IMG/VR virus record: IMGVR_UViG_2802429249_000004
Coordinates: 1 to 15,411 of that record
Strand: one strand, 5' to 3'
DNA from: a virus
Lineage: Duplodnaviria > Heunggongvirae > Uroviricota > Caudoviricetes
Length of the DNA: 15,411 nucleotides
Shown here: piece after piece, positions 1 through 15,411 of the stretch
Layout: each line of letters opens with the position of its first letter
Numbering within the stretch: the stretch's first letter is position 1
The notes under the pieces: generated by a model
What the model saw: only the letters and a program-made list of their open reading frames with translations
The model's database searches: none
What the model was told of the DNA's origin: nothing
Position numbers and translations under genes: made by a program

Positions 1-1215
1 ATGCTGCTTTCAGACCTTGCTATCAGACGCGCGAAGCCGAAAGAAAAGGCTTATACGCTCAATGACGGTAACGGGCTTTCGTTACTCATTGAGCCGAACG
101 GCTCGAAAGGGTGGCGACTACGTTACAGGTTTGCAGGAAAGCCCAAAATGTTGTCATTGGGCGTGTACCCTGATGTGTCTCTGTCTGATGCCAGGGCGGC
201 AAGGGATGAGGCTAAAAGGCTTCTTGCTGGTGGTATAAATCCAAGTGAGGCCAGAAAAGCCCAAAAGCGAGAACAGGCGAGCAAATTTGGCAATACTTTT
301 GAGGGTATCGCTCGCGAATGGTACGAAAAGCGGATCGACAGGTGGTCATCGTCATACGCCGAGGAAATGATCGAGACGTTTGAAAAAGACGTTTTTCCGT
401 ACATTGGCGGTAGGCCGATCGCAGAAATTAAGCCGATGGAATTGCTGGCGGTTCTTTCCCGTCTTAATGACCGTGGTGCGACTGAAAAATTGCGTAAGGT
501 TCGCCAGCGATGTGGCGAGGTGTTCCGGTACGCAATCATCACCGGACGCGCCGAATATAATCCAGCCCCTGACCTGGTGAGCGCATTTGCTCCACATAAA
601 AAAGAGCATTACGCCTATCTGAAGGCCGACGAACTGCCGGAATTTTTCCGCGTTTTTAATACGTACACCGGAAGCCAGATCGTCAAACTGGCAATGCGGC
701 TATTAATTCTGACAGGTGTCAGACCCGGGGAATTACGGCAGGCAGAATGGCGGGAGATCGATTTTGATAATCGTTTGTGGGAAGTGCCTAAAGAACGAAT
801 GAAGATGCGCCGTCCGCATTGTGTGCCATTACCAGAACAGGCGATAAAAATACTGGAGCAGTTAAAAAACATGACAGGCCAGTATCAGTTTATTTTCCCC
901 GGTCGTATTCACCACAGTAAGCCAATGAGTGAAATGGCGATGAATGTACTCATTCGTCGTATTGGCTACGCCGGGCGCGTCACTGGTCATGGATTCCGGC
1001 ACACCATGAGCACCATTTTGCATGAACAGGGCTATAACACTGCGTGGATAGAAACACAGCTTGCGCATGTTGATAAAAACTCAATTCGTGGCACGTACAA
1101 CCATGCGCAATATCTGGATGGTCGCCGGGAAATGCTCCAGTGGTACGCCGACTATATGGATTCGCTTGAGCATGGCGGAAATGTTGTTTACATAAAATCT
1201 GAAAAATTAAATTGA
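1..1215 (+). CDS. int: Site-specific tyrosine recombinase, P4-type integrase
   Basis: 404-aa ORF. N-terminus LSDLAIRRAKPKEKAYTLNDGNGLSLLIEPNGSKGWRLRYRF matches the P4/IntA integrase family arm-binding region. C-terminal catalytic signature GHGFRHT (H-x-x-R box) and RGTYNHAQY (tyrosine nucleophile region). ATG sits exactly at position 1, so the true start could lie upstream. Confidence 0.9.
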   Translation: MLLSDLAIRRAKPKEKAYTLNDGNGLSLLIEPNGSKGWRLRYRFAGKPKMLSLGVYPDVSLSDARAARDEAKRLLAGGINPSEARKAQKREQASKFGNTFEGIAREWYEKRIDRWSSSYAEEMIETFEKDVFPYIGGRPIAEIKPMELLAVLSRLNDRGATEKLRKVRQRCGEVFRYAIITGRAEYNPAPDLVSAFAPHKKEHYAYLKADELPEFFRVFNTYTGSQIVKLAMRLLILTGVRPGELRQAEWREIDFDNRLWEVPKERMKMRRPHCVPLPEQAIKILEQLKNMTGQYQFIFPGRIHHSKPMSEMAMNVLIRRIGYAGRVTGHGFRHTMSTILHEQGYNTAWIETQLAHVDKNSIRGTYNHAQYLDGRREMLQWYADYMDSLEHGGNVVYIKSEKLN

Positions 1216-1245
1216 TTACATTGATATTCTTATATAGGTGATATC

Positions 1246-2154
1246 ATGCTTCCTGAAAGATTGTTTTACACTCTGAATAAAGCAGCTTTTGAGATAAATA
1301 GAGATGTTTATGATTTATTTCACTATATATCAATCGGAATGGTTGATGTAGCAATAAATATAGACTTGTCAGATCTTATTGAAGAAGGAAGGGTCTCTGT
1401 TCGTGGTAAATTTAATAAAGAAATATTTACTAATACAAGAAGTAAAAAATTCAGACATCGCTCTAACTATGCAAAAATAAGTGAAGTTATTAGTTGCGAA
1501 TCTAATGGAAAGTTAAAACATAGAAAAGTCATTAAGGCATGTGGTCTTTTTTCTGTCCGAACATCCAATCTTTTTAAGATGGATGCTGATTTTGATAACG
1601 TGAAAGAATTTGTTGTTGATAGGCTATATCCAGTGAGGCTTCCATCTTTTACGCACTATAACTTGGAGGATTATAACCCACGAGTAATTTTAATTGATGG
1701 TGGTATAAATATTAAAACAAGCGATTTAGTTATAACTAAAAGTGAATTATTTTTGCTTAAAAATGGTGGAGTGACAATAAATTGGAGATTAAACCAAGTC
1801 AAATCATCTATGGATAAGTATCCCGATTTTATTAAAAGTAAAATGGATGGGGGAAATTCACGTAGTTGCGAAACAATTAACAAAATGGTGGGTAAGCCTA
1901 GAAATATCTATCGAAATGTTATTGTTGATGTAGCGAAAGCTACTCGTATTTCTTATCCGTGGAGCCATACGACATTAATTATCAATAAAATACACTCCTT
2001 GCTTTATTCTGTTGATGCTGTTAATACACCTAAAGTAGGTACAATTAGAAATATTCTTTGTTCAGAAGGAATTGGCAAAACAGGAGTGGAAACAAAAGAT
2101 GATTTCCGCTTGGTTATCCCAGAGGAGTACAGAAAATTATTTAAATTGAATTAA
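1246..2154 (+). CDS. Hypothetical protein, AT-rich orphan cargo gene (no recognisable domain)
   Basis: 302-aa ORF with SD-like AGGTGA 5 nt upstream of ATG. Codon composition is strikingly AT-rich (many AAA/AAT/ATT/ATA codons) compared with the flanking integrase and alpA. No competing ORF. Confidence 0.7.
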   Translation: MLPERLFYTLNKAAFEINRDVYDLFHYISIGMVDVAINIDLSDLIEEGRVSVRGKFNKEIFTNTRSKKFRHRSNYAKISEVISCESNGKLKHRKVIKACGLFSVRTSNLFKMDADFDNVKEFVVDRLYPVRLPSFTHYNLEDYNPRVILIDGGINIKTSDLVITKSELFLLKNGGVTINWRLNQVKSSMDKYPDFIKSKMDGGNSRSCETINKMVGKPRNIYRNVIVDVAKATRISYPWSHTTLIINKIHSLLYSVDAVNTPKVGTIRNILCSEGIGKTGVETKDDFRLVIPEEYRKLFKLN

Positions 2155-2252
2155 ATTGTATTTAATTTAAATTTTAATATTTAATTTAAAAAATACATCC
2201 TTCTCTTGTGTATATTCCAGAAACAGACTTTTATATGCATCAGGAGAAGTGT

Positions 2253-2453
2253 ATGGATAAGCAAAATTTAATTCGTATGCCAGAAACCATGCGCCGTACA
2301 GGCTATGGTAGGGCATGGATCTATAAACTCATTGCCCAAGGGCGTTTTCCTAAACCTGTAAAAATTGGCTCGCGAGCGATTGCTTTCGTTGAGAGTGAAA
2401 TTGATGAGTGGATTAATCAGCGTATTGCGGAATCACGCGGAACAGCTACCTGA
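2253..2453 (+). CDS. alpA: AlpA-family phage transcriptional regulator / excisionase-like HTH protein
   Basis: Sequence MPETMRRTGYGRAWIYKLIAQGRFPKPVKIGSRAIAFVESEIDEWINQR matches the AlpA/Vis family pattern (TG-x-x-R-x-TIY..., EIDEW). Start chosen at ATG 2253 because AGGAGA lies 6 nt upstream; the ORF track begins at 2208. Confidence 0.85.
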   Translation: MDKQNLIRMPETMRRTGYGRAWIYKLIAQGRFPKPVKIGSRAIAFVESEIDEWINQRIAESRGTAT

Positions 2454-2531
2454 TTAAATGGCTACGGGGCCAGAAGCCCCAGCTATCCACCAGCAAATAA
2501 AAAGTAACTTAATTCGATAGCAGGAGTTTTT

Positions 2532-3332
2532 ATGAAACTGCGAAAAACGCCCGTACAGGGGCAGGGCTTCGTTCGGCCTGAAAACCAGAATCTGCAAAAT
2601 TTCGGCGAAATTATCCCGATTATTTCCGGCGTTATTGGCGGGAGTGAAACCACTATTGTTAGCGCCAGAGCGTTACATAAGGCGTTAGGTGTAGGGCGCG
2701 TTTTCCGTTCGTGGATCAAGGGGCGCATTGAAGAATACGGGTTCACGGAAGGCGTGGATTATGAGGTTGTTGAATATTTGAGCCGACCCGATCCGGTGAG
2801 CGCAAAATCTCGCCAGCAAACCGCTCTTGAGTACATCATCACAGTGAACATGGCAAAAGAACTGGCGATGGTCGAACGCACCGAACAGGGCCGCGCCGTT
2901 CGTCAGTACTTCATCAAATGCGAGGAGGAGCTACACAAGGTAGCGCCAGTGCGTTCCGCAGCGTTACGCCGGGAACTGAAAGCCCGTATCACAGTTGCCA
3001 GCTACTTTAAGCCAATGTGTGCCGCGTTGGAGGCGTACCGGGCTGAACTGGGTAAAAACACGTTCCAGCACCACTACACCACGGAAGCCAATATGCTGGC
3101 GCGTATCGTGCTGGGTGGCATGACTGCAAAACAGTGGGCGCAGGCGAACGGCATCACAGGCGAACCACGCGACCACATGAGCACGTTGCAGCTTGAGCAC
3201 CTTTCTTACCTTGAGCAGAGCAATATCACGCTGATTGAGTTAGGCCTGGACTACCACCAGCGGAAAGCTGAATTAATTCGTCTTTCGCAGCGTTGGTTAG
3301 CCCGTCGCATGGAGGAAAACAGCCATGTGTAA
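2532..3332 (+). CDS. Phage antirepressor-like protein (AntA/AntB-type N-terminal domain)
   Basis: 266-aa ORF with AGGAG 5 nt upstream of ATG. Segment ARALHKALGVGRVFRSWIKGRIEEYGFTEGVDYEV resembles the AntA antirepressor domain consensus (..F..WIK.RIEEYGF.EG.DY). Assigned from memory of the family pattern, not searched. Confidence 0.55.
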   Translation: MKLRKTPVQGQGFVRPENQNLQNFGEIIPIISGVIGGSETTIVSARALHKALGVGRVFRSWIKGRIEEYGFTEGVDYEVVEYLSRPDPVSAKSRQQTALEYIITVNMAKELAMVERTEQGRAVRQYFIKCEEELHKVAPVRSAALRRELKARITVASYFKPMCAALEAYRAELGKNTFQHHYTTEANMLARIVLGGMTAKQWAQANGITGEPRDHMSTLQLEHLSYLEQSNITLIELGLDYHQRKAELIRLSQRWLARRMEENSHV

Positions 3333-4004
3333 CGCTCTGACCGTTACAAAAAGAGAAAGCGCCCCGTTGCCGGAGCGCCTTTGTGAACGAATAGCCTACT
3401 GCGCCATATTGCTTACTGTCTACGAGGCAGATTATAGCGTTGTGGTCGCACAGAGTGAAGGCGCTGATCACCGTTACTACAGCACGCCAGAAATGCAGAA
3501 TATTTTGCTGCAAAATGTCGTTGGTCACGCTGTCCGGAAAGCAAAAAATTTTGCTGGTAGCGCGACTGATGCGATTTTGTCAGGTCGCCAGGTGATGATC
3601 AATCTGATGTCTAATTTCGTTCTGGATAAAACAAAGGCGACCGCAGAGGGCCACCAGTGGGAAAGCTACACACTTGAACACATCGCCAACAATGCCAGAT
3701 TTGCGGCTGGTGGGCAATGTGATCAGTGTGCTGGCTTGCTGGTGGGCTATTCCTGCTCTTTAACATTGCCATGCCGCGATGTTTTCCAGGTATGCGACCC
3801 CATTTTTGTGCGCCTGTACTCTTTAAGGAATTTCTCAAGGATAAACGCACAGGGCGCGAATCTGTCTGACTCATATTCGTACGCTATCTTTCTGCGCTGT
3901 CTTTTCCGTGCCGGTGATGGTGTATTGGTTGATTCTTTGTTGGTCATTCTGTGTACCTGTAAAGCAATGCGCCGGAGTTCCTCACACCACGGCGATGATA
4001 GTTA
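3325..4004 (+). pseudogene. Stop-free frame beginning at an ATG overlapped with the antirepressor stop (CATGTGTAA); possible degraded or fused gene, 3' end undefined
   Basis: Start motif and first residues (MCNA...) mirror the coupled junction at 4856 (MCNA...). The first ~150 codons have protein-like composition. The frame then runs without a stop through the antisense of gene 4005-4310 and the promoter region into gene 4498-4863 (512 codons), with Cys/Ser-rich low-complexity translation in the middle. Confidence 0.25.
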
Positions 4005-4310
4005 TTATTCTGATTCTTTGGCCTTGCGGCGCTGGAGTTCTTCACGTGCGACGGTGACGAGTTGCCCGATCTCCTCGACAGCTTTGACTCCGATTTTTTC
4101 CACCTGCGCCAGTGCATTGAGCGAAGAAACCAGGGGATTTTCTCCGCTTCCTTCTGCCTGGCGGCGGGCGATCTCACCACGCATGGCGGTTACTATGAAT
4201 CCGGCGTTGCTTTCGCCGTCCAGTTTTACGGATTCCATGCCTTCAAAAGCATCATGTGGGATACGAATTGAAATCTGTTTTGATTTGTCGTTGATAGTGT
4301 TTTTTGCCAT
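4005..4310 (-). CDS. Small putative DNA-binding regulator (possible repressor of the divergent early operon)
   Basis: 101-aa ORF on the minus strand: MAKNTINDKSKQISIRIP...ELQRRKAKESE. AGGAGA lies 6 nt upstream of ATG (start 4310), and there is a double stop TAA TAA. It is divergent from the 4498 operon and shares the operator-bearing intergenic region. The ORF track lists it as 4005-4349 from an earlier ATG. Confidence 0.7.
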   Translation of the reverse strand: MAKNTINDKSKQISIRIPHDAFEGMESVKLDGESNAGFIVTAMRGEIARRQAEGSGENPLVSSLNALAQVEKIGVKAVEEIGQLVTVAREELQRRKAKESE

Positions 4311-4330
4311 GTGCATTCTCCTAAACAAAA

Positions 4331-4410
4331 GATGTGATTCAGTATACACAAAAAAGAATCACAAAAAATACTTGACCTGTGATTCAGTTAAATTTAATTT
4401 AAATCACACC
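4331..4410. promoter_or_regulatory. Divergent promoter/operator region: two dyads TGTGATTC-N14/15-GAATCACA overlapping a sigma70-like promoter (-35 TTGACC 4372-4377, -10 TAATTT 4395-4400)
   Basis: TGTGATTCAGT at 4334-4344 and 4378-4388 (direct copies). Inverted partners GAATCACA at 4357-4364 and AATCACAC at 4402-4409. -35/-10 hexamers with 17-bp spacing upstream of gene 4498. Confidence 0.5.
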
Positions 4411-4497
4411 TCAGTAAGAGGATGTAAACGACAACGCCCCGAACTGTTTGCGGCAGTAGCGGGGCGTCTAACCAAACCGTTAAATGAGGTAACGATT

Positions 4498-4863
4498 ATG
4501 GCTGGGGCACAGCATACCCAAACTCACCCTAAATTTATATACACCTTCCTGGCGGTGCACCGTGATTGCATGGCTGACGGTAAAAACACTGTTCATGTAG
4601 CCGCCGATACGCTGGTTGATGCCTGCGAGATGCTCAATGACATGGGCTATATCTCGGCAACATGGAAAGGGCGCGAAGAAAACACGTTGTTTATTCAGAA
4701 ATGCGAAAACAATTTTATCTGGCGTTTTATCGCCCTGAGTACGGCACAACCGCGCGTGATTCACATCGAGGCCACCAGCGAACAGGAAGCACGCCAGCAA
4801 TCTCCTGATGGCTGCGTGATGGTATTCGCTGCCCATATTCGCCAGGAGGTGGAGCATGTGTAA
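4498..4863 (+). CDS. Hypothetical protein (first gene of early operon)
   Basis: 121 aa. GAGG 8 nt upstream of ATG 4498. Stop overlaps the next start (CATGTGTAA). Confidence 0.65.
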   Translation: MAGAQHTQTHPKFIYTFLAVHRDCMADGKNTVHVAADTLVDACEMLNDMGYISATWKGREENTLFIQKCENNFIWRFIALSTAQPRVIHIEATSEQEARQQSPDGCVMVFAAHIRQEVEHV

Positions 4864-5080
4864 TGCAACATGGCCTGATGCAGCGGTAGACGCTATCAAA
4901 ACGCTGATGGATTCACTTATTGAGATTTCTGCTATCGCTGGTGTGGCGCATAAACACGCAGCCAGAGAATCAGAATGCATCTCCCATTATTTAGCATTTG
5001 TGCAGCTGAAAGCCGATCAGGCACTGGATAAGGCCGGAAAAATTATCATGGCTGATGTGCAGGAGGTGCACCATGCATAA
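4856..5080 (+). CDS. Hypothetical small protein
   Basis: 74 aa. Start overlaps the upstream stop (ATGTGTAA). Stop overlaps the next start (ATGCATAA). Confidence 0.6.
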   Translation: MCNATWPDAAVDAIKTLMDSLIEISAIAGVAHKHAARESECISHYLAFVQLKADQALDKAGKIIMADVQEVHHA

Positions 5081-5438
5081 CCTGTCAATTTCTGACCTTA
5101 ACAGCATTCAGTTTGACGAGAAATTTACCGGGCAGCTACTGGTCAATGTGGAGAATGGACGCGTGGTAAGTAATTATCACCTGCCGGATGGTGCAATTGC
5201 CGGAAGCGTTGAAGCATTGCTGGAGCTGGCAGAACGTGCGCGACTGATTAAGCCGTTAACGTGCCATCACGATGATAATCTGCATTTTACCGGACGCATG
5301 GTGAGTCACTACGAAAACGGCGTTGAAGTATCCTGCGAACGTCTGCGTGATGATTGCTGTTTCGGCACATTGCCGGAATTTATCGAATTGCTGACCAGTT
5401 GCGGTTATCAGGTCATTCAGGGGGGGAAACATGCGTGA
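5073..5438 (+). CDS. Hypothetical protein with internally duplicated ~50-aa FTG-motif domain
   Basis: 121 aa from ATG 5073, with AGGAGG 6 nt upstream; the ORF track starts at 5055. Two internal repeats (FTGQLLVNVENGRVVS...GSVEALLELAERARLIKPL and FTGRMVSHYENGVEVS...GTLPEFIELL) and paralogy with gene 5657-5857. Confidence 0.65.
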   Translation: MHNLSISDLNSIQFDEKFTGQLLVNVENGRVVSNYHLPDGAIAGSVEALLELAERARLIKPLTCHHDDNLHFTGRMVSHYENGVEVSCERLRDDCCFGTLPEFIELLTSCGYQVIQGGKHA

Positions 5439-5664
5439 TGATCGTTTTAATTCCCTGAAACAGGAGTTTGATGGCGCACCGGAAGATACATCGGGCGCAT
5501 TGTTGAACGTTGCTGACATGATGAAAGCTGCATATTTTCTTATCAATACCAATGGCTACAAGTCAGAGGGTGAAATGATTCTTAGTATTGCGTCGGACTA
5601 TGCGGAATATGTGGCAGAGGCGCGTTACAGAAGAAAATTCACGGAGGATATAAGCCATGCATAA
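5431..5664 (+). CDS. Hypothetical small acidic protein
   Basis: 77 aa. Start overlaps the upstream stop (ATGCGTGA). Stop overlaps the next start (ATGCATAA). Confidence 0.6.
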   Translation: MRDDRFNSLKQEFDGAPEDTSGALLNVADMMKAAYFLINTNGYKSEGEMILSIASDYAEYVAEARYRRKFTEDISHA

Positions 5665-5857
5665 TCATGAAGCGCATGTACCCGTAGTGCTTAATGTGCC
5701 AGATGATTTCACCGGACGCGTACTGGTTTACCTGGATAAAGGGAAAGTGAAATCACAACGCCGACTGAAAAGTAATGAAATTTTGGGTTCTCCTGAGTTT
5801 TTTTCTGAACTCTGTATTCGTGCAGAAATAAAACCGGAACTGCTGACAGGAAAATAA
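5657..5857 (+). CDS. Hypothetical small protein, single-copy paralog of the FTG-motif domain
   Basis: 66 aa, MHNHEAHVPVVLNVPDDFTGRVLVYLDKGKVKS...GSPEFFSELCIRAEIKPELLTGK. Aligns by eye with both halves of gene 5073-5438. Confidence 0.6.
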   Translation: MHNHEAHVPVVLNVPDDFTGRVLVYLDKGKVKSQRRLKSNEILGSPEFFSELCIRAEIKPELLTGK

Positions 5858-5861
5858 AACC

Positions 5862-6152
5862 ATGAAAAAGAAAAATTCTGGCTTTACTGCCAGCGGTCTC
5901 TCTCGGCCTGAAATCAGACACGGAGATATTTACCGCGACACCATACGTGGGGGACGAGCGGTTATTTGTCATGTTACGCCAGAAAATATCACCTACCGCC
6001 GTGACGCTTATGAATATGACTGCATAATGCCGTGCCGTCAGTTTGAGCGTGATTTTATTCTGGTGGAGAACAAACAACAGGAAGCGACGAGACGTGCAGC
6101 CATGAATATTAAAAAAATCCGGGCAATGTTGGTTGCGGGAGGTAAGAAGTGA
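5862..6152 (+). CDS. Hypothetical basic protein
   Basis: 96 aa. Stop overlaps the GTG start of the primase (GTGA), consistent with translational coupling. Confidence 0.55.
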   Translation: MKKKNSGFTASGLSRPEIRHGDIYRDTIRGGRAVICHVTPENITYRRDAYEYDCIMPCRQFERDFILVENKQQEATRRAAMNIKKIRAMLVAGGKK

Positions 6153-7954
6153 AAAACGCACCGAGTCTAAAATATCAGCCGAAGGATAAATTCACTGAGG
6201 TAATCATTTTTGCCGGGACGGATGCTTACGCCCATGCTCAACACTGGATTGAAAGTGAAGGACGAAAACACGGCGATAACGTGCCTCCTGTTTACCTGGG
6301 GCCAAAGCAACTGGCAGACCTGGCGAATATCCGCATTATTGACGAGAAACGCCGTTTTGCGCGTGTCTATATCGCGGGGGAGATAGAGCCAATCCAGATC
6401 AATACTATCGCTGAAAAGCTGGCGCTGGCTGGCGTACAGGACGCGAAATTATACAAAGGTATCACCGACCGGGAGCCGGAAAACTGGCGCGACTACCTGC
6501 AACGGATCCGCGAACAGGCAGAGAGTGGGGAAGTTTCAGCGATGAAATTAGCCACAAAAAATATTGACCTACCCAGGCCAGCACTAAATCAGATGGGAGC
6601 CAGCCAGAGAGGGGAAGTGTTACTTGAATATTATGGAAGAGCACTGGCTATAAATGATGATTCTGATGTAGTTCACCATTACAACGGAATTGTCTGGGTG
6701 CCTGTATCTGATAAGGAACTCCAGCGGTCTATGGCGAAGATTTTTATTGATGCTGGAATCAGTTATTCGCAAAACGCCATTAAATTTGCCGTAGACACAA
6801 TGAAATTGAGCCTGCCTGTTATGGGCGGGGCAGACAGGAATCTTATTGGATTCAGTAACGGGGTATTTGATACCCGGACGGGAAATTTTCGGGAGCATAA
6901 CAAAAATGACTGGTTGTTAAATGCCAGTGAATTACCGTTCAGCCCACCAGCAGAGGGGGAAACGCTGGCAACACATGCGCCGAATTTCTGGAAGTGGCTG
7001 CGTCGTTCGGTGGCAGATAATGATCGTAAAGCTGATCGCGTACTGGCGGCATTATTCATGGTACTGGCGAACCGGTACGACTGGCAGTTATTCCTTGAGG
7101 TAACAGGCCCAGGCGGAAGCGGTAAAAGTGTGATGGCTGAGATTTGTACCATGCTGGCGGGTAAGGCCAACACAGTATCGGCAAGCATGAAGGCTCTGGA
7201 AGACGCAAGGGAACGCGCGTTAGTAGTTGGCTTTTCGCTGATTATCATGCCGGATATGACTCGCTACGCTGGCGATGGTGCAGGAATTAAGGCAATTACT
7301 GGCGGCGACAAGGTGGCAATTGATCCGAAACATAAAGCCCCCTACTCCACACGTATTCCGGCAGTAGTGCTTGCGGTAAACAATAACGCCATGTCATTCA
7401 GTGACCGAAGCGGGGGGATCTCGCGTCGTAGGGTGATATTTAATTTCTCTGAGGTCGTACCGGAGAACGAACGCGATCCCATGCTGGCGGAAAAGATAGA
7501 AGGCGAACTGGCGGTAGTGATTCGCCATTTGCTAACACGATTTACCGACCAGGACGAAGCTAAAAGACTACTTTATGAGCAGCAAAAATCAGAAGAAGCG
7601 CTGTTGATAAAGCGCGAAGGTGATTCACTGGTGGACTTTTGCGGCTATCTGATGTCGTTGGTTAAATGTGAAGGAATGATGGTGGGCAATGCGGAAATAG
7701 TGCCATTTAGCCCGAGGCGATACCTGTATCATGCTTATTTAGCCTATATGTCAGCGCATGGCCTGGGAAAACCAGTATCACTGACACGCTTTGGTACTGA
7801 TATGCCAGGAGCTATGGCGGAATACGGAAAGGAGTATAAGCGGGCTAAATGCACTAAAGGCCCGGATAAAGGGCGAGTGATAACAAATGTTCTGTTAGAT
7901 GATGATGCTGATGGCTGGTTGCCAGCAGCTACAGGGATTAACGACAGAACATAA
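6149..7954 (+). CDS. P4 alpha-like primase/helicase (phage/plasmid primase P4-family C-terminal domain, D5-type P-loop NTPase)
   Basis: 601 aa. Walker A GPGGSGKS, with downstream segments typical of P4-family primase C-terminal/D5 NTPase proteins. GTG start with GGGAGG 6 nt upstream. Iteron cluster immediately downstream. Confidence 0.8.
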   Translation: MKNAPSLKYQPKDKFTEVIIFAGTDAYAHAQHWIESEGRKHGDNVPPVYLGPKQLADLANIRIIDEKRRFARVYIAGEIEPIQINTIAEKLALAGVQDAKLYKGITDREPENWRDYLQRIREQAESGEVSAMKLATKNIDLPRPALNQMGASQRGEVLLEYYGRALAINDDSDVVHHYNGIVWVPVSDKELQRSMAKIFIDAGISYSQNAIKFAVDTMKLSLPVMGGADRNLIGFSNGVFDTRTGNFREHNKNDWLLNASELPFSPPAEGETLATHAPNFWKWLRRSVADNDRKADRVLAALFMVLANRYDWQLFLEVTGPGGSGKSVMAEICTMLAGKANTVSASMKALEDARERALVVGFSLIIMPDMTRYAGDGAGIKAITGGDKVAIDPKHKAPYSTRIPAVVLAVNNNAMSFSDRSGGISRRRVIFNFSEVVPENERDPMLAEKIEGELAVVIRHLLTRFTDQDEAKRLLYEQQKSEEALLIKREGDSLVDFCGYLMSLVKCEGMMVGNAEIVPFSPRRYLYHAYLAYMSAHGLGKPVSLTRFGTDMPGAMAEYGKEYKRAKCTKGPDKGRVITNVLLDDDADGWLPAATGINDRT

Positions 7955-7981
7955 TACGAAATTTATAAGCTGAAACGTAAA

Positions 7982-14481: not shown

Positions 14482-15411
14482 ATGCCTATTCCAGCGAAGG
14501 ACAATTTGCTAAAAAGAATCCTGTCTGTAGATAATGCAACTCAACTACCAGCACTTATCGATAAAGATGTTATGCAGGAACAACACAATATCACAGCTAA
14601 TCTTCTGAGAAAAGGCTTAGGTATAGTAGCATTTAATATTCTGGAAGATTTTATAAAATCCAGAACTATAGAAATGTTTGATTTTATATCTAATGCACGT
14701 GTGAGATTCGAGCAGTTACCCGATTCTTTTAGAATTGCAGCAACAAATGGTGCATTAAGAGGATTAGTATATCAGGCTGGATTAGAAAAGAAAAATAATG
14801 GAGATTGGTTGGCACTAATACATTCTGAGGCCAAAAGTATTTTTTCAACGTCGCAATTTCCTTATACATTATCTCGAGTATCACTTCTTTCAGATGGTTC
14901 TAATGTTGGACATGATGATATACCAGAAGTAATGAAGTGTCTTGATATAACTGGTGGGTGGAAGACATTACAAAAAATATCGAACGATATTGGTGGTGGT
15001 ACATTAGATCTGAATGCTGCTTATAAAAATATGTTTTTCGATAGAAATAGATGTGCTCATGAAGCAGGTTTTAATTATCCATATACCTCTCTCGATAATT
15101 CTTTAAATGACATTGTTACTATTGCTTCTGCATTTGACATAGCGTTAACTACTCGTTGCAGGTATATAGAAAAACAACCTAATTTACCGCTTTCAGCTCA
15201 TAAAGAAAAAGATCCGTTTTCATATCGGTTTTTAATCGCTGATGGAGATGTTTTTCGAGAGAAAAAATCATTAGAACCTGGTGCGAAAACAATAAAAAAA
15301 TGGAGTAATATCTCTGATGCACAATCTAATTTAATTCCTAAGCTAAGACTCCGCGATGAGTTTTTGATTTATATAGGAAAACAGAGAAGGCTTAGTGATT
15401 GGTATTTGTGA
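14482..15411 (+). CDS. Hypothetical protein, operon partner of the DUF262 protein; weak HEPN-like R-x4-H motif
   Basis: 309 aa. ATG lies 1 nt after the upstream TAA, so the two are tightly coupled. Same AT-rich composition. Motif RNRCAH at aa 188-193. Stop TGA falls at the window end. Confidence 0.7.
   Translation: MPIPAKDNLLKRILSVDNATQLPALIDKDVMQEQHNITANLLRKGLGIVAFNILEDFIKSRTIEMFDFISNARVRFEQLPDSFRIAATNGALRGLVYQAGLEKKNNGDWLALIHSEAKSIFSTSQFPYTLSRVSLLSDGSNVGHDDIPEVMKCLDITGGWKTLQKISNDIGGGTLDLNAAYKNMFFDRNRCAHEAGFNYPYTSLDNSLNDIVTIASAFDIALTTRCRYIEKQPNLPLSAHKEKDPFSYRFLIADGDVFREKKSLEPGAKTIKKWSNISDAQSNLIPKLRLRDEFLIYIGKQRRLSDWYL

Follow-up and report, generated by a model that had tools for sequence, protein, structure and literature searches.

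In satellite phage P4, the kil gene forms the end of a much longer reading frame, eta. According to Forti et al. 1999 (J Bacteriol 181:5225), eta begins upstream of the constitutive promoter PLE and is translated only on transcripts that come from PLL, a late promoter located further upstream; nonsense mutations in it are said to cause premature Rho-dependent termination at timm, and their suppression to restore read-through. To our knowledge, no function has been assigned to the P4 Eta protein itself. In the P4 record, Kil ends a 214-codon open reading frame (ORF) on the minus strand (8168–8812), which corresponds to eta and whose three ATGs (ATGATGATG) overlap the TGA of orf88, a homologue of alpA/vis, while the phage also carries the Rfam families C4 (CI RNA) and isrK (seqA). 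A second precedent is the immI region of P1/P7, in which icd reportedly acts as a translated leader for ant under the control of the C4 antisense RNA (Biere, Citron and Schuster 1992; Riedel, Heinrich and Schuster 1993). Here, a stretch of 15,411 nucleotides is analyzed (IMG/VR virus record IMGVR_UViG_2802429249_000004, Caudoviricetes, positions 1 to 15,411; henceforth, the window), which represents an integrative island with a stop-free, eta-like frame of 512 codons (3325–4863, plus strand) that starts at an ATG and ends in a gene of the kil/Icd-like family. Judged by its sequence, this frame appears to be a variant of the P4 eta/kil arrangement and not a member of the P4 immunity system.

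The likeness to P4 lies in the terminal gene, which matches the same family (NF033153) and has its own Shine-Dalgarno (SD) sequence and ATG, and in the position of this gene, which closes a far longer ORF in the same frame; this ORF begins in an ATGA-type overlap with the stop of an upstream gene of the regulator zone, has an early promoter inside it (here a candidate promoter) and precedes a primase operon. However, the frame of the island is 2.5 times longer than P4 eta (512 versus 197–199 codons), and its start would be coupled to antA, with alpA one gene further upstream, whereas that of eta is coupled directly to the alpA homologue. Moreover, the same-strand CI RNA and seqA of P4 have no equivalent in the island, where a divergent two-gene unit with a YlcI/YnfO-family gene is crossed in antisense instead; with a protein operon in place of CI and seqA, the eta-like frame must stay open antisense to real genes. 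Rho dependence, which has reportedly been shown in P4, is inferred by us for the island. Similarly, P1/P7 immI shares an Icd-family ORF whose translation lets transcription continue downstream and whose block leads to premature Rho-dependent termination, but the P1 ORF is short, lacks a long upstream in-frame extension and is controlled by the C4 RNA, which is absent here, and the antirepressor lies downstream of icd in P1 and upstream in the island. What appears to be new relative to P4 eta is that the frame crosses a divergent protein-repressor operon in antisense and does so without CI RNA, the principle itself having been set in P4 in 1999. The P4 eta/kil system is summarized in PMC10111431, where it serves only as a precedent.

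The 512-codon frame had been singled out in an earlier, sequence-only reading of the window, and the geometry described there is borne out. The ORF list and a translation without stops establish its length from the ATG at 3325; the stop-to-stop opening (3301–4860) comprises 520 codons, and only the frame of the primase is longer in the window. The ATG (3325–3327) overlaps the TAA stop of the antirepressor gene antA (3330–3332) as ATGTGTAA at 3325–3332 and stands behind the SD sequence GGAGG (3311–3315, plus strand, read from the sequence), located 9 nt upstream; the two would together form a translational-coupling junction. This junction between antA and the long frame is invariant in alignment A1, and other sequence clusters display the same or analogous start/stop overlaps (ATGA, ATGACTAA, GTGA, TAATGGTG). 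Downstream, the frame runs antisense to two minus-strand genes (3747–3947 and 4005–4310), passes through a promoter/operator region (4311–4497) and continues in frame into the Icd-like gene (4498–4863). Its in-frame extension upstream of the Icd-like ATG amounts to 391 codons. Over 3325–4497, this frame contains no stops, against 22 and 26 in the other two plus frames and 11–17 in the minus frames. Dinucleotide shuffles gave probabilities of remaining open of 0.0028 for 3333–3746, 0.39 for 3948–4004 and 0.0128 for 4311–4497, and resampling of synonymous codons in the two antisense genes, such that the encoded proteins did not change, gave approximately 0.26 and 0.15. As the product of these five parts, the composite null is approximately 5e-7, which confirms that the open frame is not a chance event, as the sequence-only reading had supposed.

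The frame is likewise maintained in relatives. Loci were collected by the Icd-like domain alone from one-genome-per-species contigs (15), IMG/VR (80) and metagenomes (80), and openness was surveyed in the 150 loci with at least 1500 nt upstream, which fall into 51 sequence clusters. The median in-frame opening before the Icd core is 312 codons, and 135 of the 150 loci reach at least 150 codons, while the equivalent frame in eight annotated E. coli relatives extends over 301–536 open codons. Counted over a fixed 300-codon interval upstream of kil across the 51 clusters, stops average 4.3 in the frame of kil versus 15.6 and 18.2 in the other plus frames, and the in-frame stops arise mostly where the fixed interval extends past the start of the ORF. 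Beyond E. coli, nine of 14 loci retain 233–367 open codons, with copies in Klebsiella, Enterobacter, Rahnella, Intestinirhabdus, Superficieibacter, Acerihabitans, Rosenbergiella and E. ruysiae. A plus-strand ORF of at least 150 codons reaches kil in 143 of 150 loci (median 359 codons) and is in frame with kil in 136 of these 143. In the remaining seven, the ORF runs out of frame: six (L007, L184, L174, L155, L146 and L016) end 62–79 nt before the core, with distances to the kil ATG of 20 nt in L184 and 9 nt in L016, and the ORF of L011 ends inside kil. That such ORFs terminate just before kil suggests that ribosome coverage, and not a fusion protein, is conserved. The out-of-frame ORFs of L011 (E. 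albertii) and L016 (Shigella) are themselves long, with 219 and 267 codons. The arrangement is thus the rule in the family and not an accident of this copy.

A second survey was anchored on repressor homology and was not conditioned on openness; it covered 183 loci with 136 unique sequences. A minus-strand repressor homologue lies upstream of kil in 179 of the 183 loci, and its antisense register is identical in 126 of the 136 unique sequences. Opposite the repressor, the plus frame is free of stops in 121 of 136, and in the non-coding promoter region it is so in 128 of 136. The spacing from the repressor start to the Icd core equals 2 mod 3 in 126 of 136 unique sequences; among 27 distinct distances (136–410 nt), 20 are 2 mod 3, and the seven exceptions are rare. 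This spacing is the cleanest sign that continuity of the plus frame is maintained, because a non-coding spacer in itself needs no fixed length mod 3. The frame persists despite the differences between alleles seen in alignment A1, where the YlcI gene and the operator region form a mosaic, parts of which cannot be aligned, two alleles carry a 126-nt deletion, and the spacer contains a 45+3-nt indel. The sequence-only reading had proposed alignment of related loci as a means of locating an ancestral stop or frameshift; instead, the long frame is retained across alleles, with length changes of 3 and 45 nt within 3325–3750. That the frame is maintained by selection can hardly be doubted. Selection against stops antisense to the regulator, one of two explanations offered at the outset, is hereby supported in a wider form, since the avoidance concerns one frame only and runs from the antirepressor stop to the Icd-like gene, gene-less stretches included.

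By contrast with its openness, the amino-acid sequence of the frame shows no sign of conservation. Within 3325–3750, variable columns among 12 unique homologous sequences are distributed over codon positions 1, 2 and 3 as 27/18/16, compared with 35/37/89 in antA, a coding-like pattern, and 5/9/20 in the kil core as controls at the same locus; third positions thus account for 26% of the variable sites in the first 142 codons versus 55–59% in antA and kil. For residues 1–142, a search of 5.8 billion clustered proteins was complemented by an exhaustive one of 1.84 billion representatives, which yielded only 34 hits. Those seen by sequence or name are long-ORF calls at this locus type, many of them labeled ‘Icd-like’; most of the others have lengths (up to 500 aa) and matched regions that fit the same locus type; and three are long proteins (997–1628 aa, 32–34% identity) that look unrelated. 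Pfam and NCBIfam revealed no domain in residues 1–142 or in the whole 512-aa product. This homology search, which the sequence-only reading had itself recommended, therefore leads to no family beyond the long ORFs of this locus type, and residues 1–142 appear to belong to no independent protein family. Moreover, two minus-strand intrinsic terminator-like hairpins lie inside this part of the frame: one with an 11-bp stem and the tail CTCTTTTTGT (3346–3381, from a hairpin scan and fold) is covered by ‘SAPLPERLCE’ of the frame product, and ‘KTKAT..GRQW’ corresponds to the reverse complement of the other (GGTGGCCCTCTGCGGTCGCC followed by the T-run TTTGTTTTAT, 3626–3655), which follows the leftward repressor operon. 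In its middle part, the product merely translates the opposite strand of the resident repressor allele and operator DNA, and this part is rich in Cys and Ser and non-homologous between alleles. The description of the first ~150 codons as protein-like is to be corrected, as their amino-acid sequence bears no sign of selection. The sequence-only reading had named a genuine long protein in relatives, collinear with the entire frame, as grounds for refutation; relatives do share the long frame, but not its amino-acid sequence. What is conserved is openness and continuity, that is, translatability, and not amino-acid sequence.

Several minor features of this region may be recorded. In alignment A1, which comprises five sequences, 3325–3520 has a single variable column. 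In 3325–3524, the most variable class (17 of 35 sites) is position 1 of the plus frame. A 100-codon minus-strand ORF that starts at a GTG (3226–3528) has its third codon positions there; this gives a weak hint of another reading frame, from a small sample and with a junk-like product. A natural deletion variant of E. coli (P0001, 234 aa, from one contig) fuses the frame at residue ~155 (..CRDVFQV) directly with the kil leader (TTNDRKIIEVAM..); both minus-strand genes and the promoter are lost, and the junction remains in frame.

Avoidance of stops in one frame through gene-less DNA is hard to explain other than by translation, and the frame is very probably translated. On balance, and with some reserve, we favor an explanation on the model of P4 eta/kil: the frame would be a leader ORF, and ribosomes translating it would protect read-through transcripts from Rho. 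Untranslated RNA is the preferred substrate of Rho. According to this proposal, transcripts would start upstream, presumably at a promoter on the alpA side, and run rightward through antA; ribosomes finishing antA would re-initiate behind GGAGG at the ATG that overlaps the antA stop and would translate without interruption through the spacer, the antisense of the two leftward genes, the internal promoter and the leader hairpin, ending in the Kil/Icd-like domain. The ribosome cover would protect approximately 1.2 kb of otherwise untranslated, largely antisense RNA from Rho termination and polarity, such that kil and the replication genes could be transcribed from the upstream promoter whatever the state of the internal promoter under repressor control. 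In this scheme, the act of translation would matter, and not the amino-acid sequence of the first ~390 codons. Read-through from the upstream promoter, with Rho as the factor evaded, is what we infer from this combination of features.

A number of observations weigh against this proposal. Translation, the upstream promoter and read-through are all deduced from sequence; a Rho-dependent terminator is not identifiable in this way, and the plus strand of 3750–4310 has no marked excess of C over G. The internal promoter falls below the threshold of a consensus scan, in which promoter-like matches overall stand at chance level. A BLASTP comparison of P4 Kil with an Enterobacter Kil gave no alignment, and Kil homology thus rests on the shared match to the NF033153 profile. 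The CI RNA and seqA of the P4 immunity system are absent, which means that the regulatory logic is not identical to that of P4. In seven of the 150 loci, no ORF that reaches kil attains 150 codons, the longest having 29–146 codons; these are L144, L056, L168 and L177, together with L014, L015 and L020 from Pectobacterium. As for the antisense register, the codon-aligned register is about as permissive (median probability of an open frame 0.32) as the observed one, the third register being closed with near certainty (~0), and the constancy of the register could partly reflect common descent of the flanks instead of repeated selection. The constant register had been considered as an independent proof of selection and was down-weighted for these two reasons, namely, the similar permissiveness of a second register and the shared ancestry of the flanks. 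Among the Pectobacterium loci alone, the longest ORFs reaching kil measure 29–106 codons.

Composition and chance would offer another account, as long antisense ORFs in the third-on-third register are a general phenomenon (e.g., Merino et al. 1994, Silke 1997). The frame indeed overlaps both minus-strand genes in exactly the register where third codon positions coincide, in which a plus-strand stop can arise only where Tyr is preceded by a codon with a final pyrimidine, or His or Gln by a codon with a final T, and the low Tyr, His and Gln content of the repressor proteins renders this register permissive. Synonymous resampling of 31 repressor proteins left the frame open with a median probability of 0.25 (range 0.08–0.85), and the plus strand is poor in A, with an AT skew of −0.3 in 3750–4200. 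The overlap is thus one that the repressor proteins tolerate, yet it is not enough to account for the open frame: approximately 220 further open codons have no annotated gene opposite, continuity is kept across length variation, and the improbable openness of the gene-less stretches (0.0028 and 0.0128), the 2 mod 3 spacing of the promoter region and persistence over 51 clusters and several genera all go unexplained. A by-product of composition is, therefore, scarcely credible. We regard as equally improbable the other explanation of the sequence-only reading, that a degraded gene was fused to kil by loss of its stop or by a frameshift. The protein-like look of the first ~150 codons, the lack of a RefSeq gene in 3333–3746 and the P0001 variant, which joins the N-terminal part directly to Kil, speak in its favor; however, the arrangement is near-universal in the family survey and occurs in nearly all relatives including other genera, the N-terminal part has no homologues outside the long ORFs of this locus type, substitutions are not coding-like, and decay would bring stops and frameshifts, whereas the observed indels are multiples of 3.

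A functional long protein, Eta-like with a C-terminal Kil and needed as a polypeptide, would fit the repeated calls of forms of 214–500 aa by gene callers and the NCBI prokaryotic genome annotation pipeline (PGAP), and the frame relation in 136 of 143 loci means that a Kil-containing long product is expected. Nevertheless, it is quite unlikely that the polypeptide itself matters, given a middle part that translates the antisense of unrelated repressor alleles and operator DNA into non-homologous, Cys/Ser-rich sequence, 142 N-terminal codons with no third-position excess, no domain and no wider family, and out-of-frame variants that end just before kil. Rather less unlikely, though still improbable, is that translation serves a different role in cis, either by bringing ribosomes through the leader hairpin for coupled translation of kil or by stabilizing a rightward antisense RNA that would silence the leftward repressor operon through transcriptional or RNA interference. 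A conserved, covarying hairpin stands just upstream of the kil SD, out-of-frame variants stop 9–20 nt before the kil ATG, which is a typical distance for re-initiation, and the frame is antisense to the whole repressor operon. Such a role, however, would not call for an open frame in the first ~140 codons, before the repressor operon is reached, yet these are stop-free (P 0.003); moreover, this role is compatible with a shield against Rho instead of excluding it.

Should the proposed Rho shielding be correct, its meaning would extend beyond this island. Tentatively, and with slightly more doubt than belief, we suggest that an enterobacterial satellite family keeps a ‘sequence-free’ ORF of 300–500 codons open antisense to its own repressor operon, such that both strands are read by ribosomes and the composition of the repressor (Tyr, His and Gln) as well as gene and spacer lengths mod 3 are constrained. 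Should this hold, the family would offer a clear example in nature of selection that acts on translatability alone across a functional antisense gene. It would also provide a system for the study of overlapping constraints, in which a real gene on the opposite strand is constrained by the need for an open frame whose product is not itself under selection. An AlpA-activated upstream promoter would then override repressor control by Rho-proof read-through and possibly also silence the repressor by convergent transcription, which yields a testable hypothesis for the route from AlpA induction to replication despite the island’s own repressor. The same explanation would account for Icd-like proteins called at 67 to ~500 aa or as pseudogenes and for the gene-less 400-nt stretch, and it would extend the P4 eta mechanism from one RNA-immunity model phage to a large group of islands of the phage-inducible chromosomal island (PICI) type with a protein repressor. 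A long frame conserved across an antisense protein-repressor module finds no description in the searchable literature, which, given the scope of that literature, is weak evidence; both the generality in PICI-type islands and the dual-strand constraint on the protein-repressor module appear not to have been described before. Descriptions of gram-negative PICIs treat the Icd-like gene as accessory (PMC10111431; PMC13612085).

The terminal kil/Icd-like gene (4486–4863 with its SD, plus strand) has the SD sequence GAGG at 4486–4489 and an ATG at 4498 and encodes 121 aa, in which the Icd-like domain occupies residues 73–116 (NF033153, phage_ICD_like, E 3.8e-22). The gene scores 78 bits against this profile and the 65-aa P4 Kil 76 bits (E 1.6e-21), with a cut-off of 25. 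A tblastn search with the Kil core against the phage collection returned a single match, in an induced prophage-like record, and did not match P4. At 121 aa, the product is longer than the usual core of 65–67 aa; residues 1–20 (MAGAQHTQTHPKFIYTFLAV) are similar to the start of the Klebsiella/Enterobacter-type protein (MACIQHTQTRPKYQYRFLAL), and the motif recurs 55 residues further on as NNFIWRFIAL. It seems that either part of the gene has been duplicated or two kil types have recombined. As a consequence of the long open frame, RefSeq does not annotate the Icd-like gene consistently. In near-identical islands (L001 7709–7864, L003 4691–4912 and L006 2929–3333 are instances), it is called as a pseudogene ‘missing N-terminus’ or with 73 aa, 121 aa or 134 aa, the last overlapping the repressor start; calls of 214–236 aa occur elsewhere.

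Upstream of this gene, a repeat search found operator-like repeats (TGTGATTCAGT) at 4333–4343 and 4378–4388 with an inverted copy at 4402–4413. They surround a candidate rightward promoter, which was read by eye on the plus strand, with the −35 element TTGACC (4372–4377) and the −10 element TAATTT (4395–4400) at a spacing of 17 nt; the −35 sequence CTTGAC is conserved across otherwise unalignable alleles in alignment A1. The kil leader (4434–4479, plus strand) contains a hairpin at 4434–4467 (fold −23.6 kcal/mol, z −2.6), with 71 unique versions in 173 loci and compensatory double changes in seven of nine predicted pairs. The motif after the hairpin, TCTAACCA(CCAA/AACC), is invariant, and the leader matches no Rfam family. 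Its 3′ ACCA-like tail is reminiscent of RNase P-type substrates, such as the C4/CI precursors. On the minus strand, a promoter-like TTCACT-17-TATAAT (3431–3459) agrees at 10 of 12 positions, and the 3346–3381 hairpin lies ~50 nt downstream; together, they could give rise to an RNA of ~75 nt antisense to codons 8–33 of the long frame. The 3626–3655 hairpin is part of a DNA block (3626–3761) that recurs in many E. coli genomes.

Searches against Rfam found nothing at gathering thresholds in the whole window, only chance-level matches at E up to 5 in 3200–4900, and likewise only chance-level matches in a permissive search of 2300–3750 of the relative L026; the element thus has no recognizable C4/CI or isrK RNA. 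C4 and isrK are also absent at gathering thresholds in L007, L008, L012, L013, L017 and L022. A sub-threshold match to SymR occurs in L026 at 3428–3500 on the minus strand (32.9 bits versus a gathering threshold of 61; E 5e-4 in a small search); this site is antisense to the kil leader and start in the common allele type and was not seen in the window.

The two minus-strand genes crossed by the frame are a small gene of 66 aa (3747–3947; annotated in RefSeq relatives, PHROG 21027, E 6e-31) and a YlcI/YnfO-family gene (4005–4310; NF041551, E 5e-18, PHROG 6522), whose product is the presumed repressor of the internal promoter. The small gene ends in ..KEQE*, the usual C-terminus of YlcI/YnfO genes in alleles that lack it, and a 17-nt direct repeat (3969–3985 and 4029–4045) flanks the junction nearby; these traces suggest that it may have arrived by insertion within the repressor 3′ end, with the plus frame kept open.

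The island as a whole begins with a tyrosine integrase (1–1215), followed by a hypothetical gene, an AlpA-type regulator, antA, the long-frame interval and several small genes; its right part carries DUF4222, a D5-type primase/helicase (6149–7954), ProQ/FinO and then GmrSD-like and HEPN genes. Pfam matches comprise Phage_integrase, Phage_AlpA and D5_N/DUF5906/Pox_D5, and integrase, AlpA and primase all point in one direction. The alpA-type gene (2256–2453, plus strand; Phage_AlpA, E 1.6e-19), where RefSeq relatives annotate a 198-nt helix-turn-helix gene, is likely the first gene of the rightward read-through operon. The AntA/AntB antirepressor gene (2532–3332, plus strand; Pfam AntA, E 2.5e-23) is also annotated in relatives. 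RefSeq copies in E. coli chromosomes annotate four genes over this interval, namely, antA, the two minus-strand genes and 4498–4863, which is named ‘host cell division inhibitor Icd-like’; no gene is annotated in 3333–3746. Copies of the element in E. coli number approximately 1,400. Megablast of 3000–5200 against the phage collection gave no match. None of the ten main ORFs matched sid/psu/delta, capsid or packaging families in Pfam; no search was dedicated to these families, several ORFs are matchless, and the window is possibly a partial island. The island is read as a gram-negative PICI/P4-like satellite. It shares with gram-negative PICIs (int-alpA-Bro zone-replication zone) an integrase, AlpA, an AntA/Bro-type gene, an Icd-like gene, a D5-type primase and ProQ/FinO, most of which point the same way, and its gene order is that described for them (PMC10111431; PMC13612085). 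The ProQ/FinO-family RNA chaperone gene lies at 8326–8868 on the plus strand. At the far end of the island, in low-GC DNA (13425–15411, plus strand), a GmrSD_N-domain gene is followed by a HEPN (RiboL-PSP) gene, and the two are probably anti-phage defense cargo.

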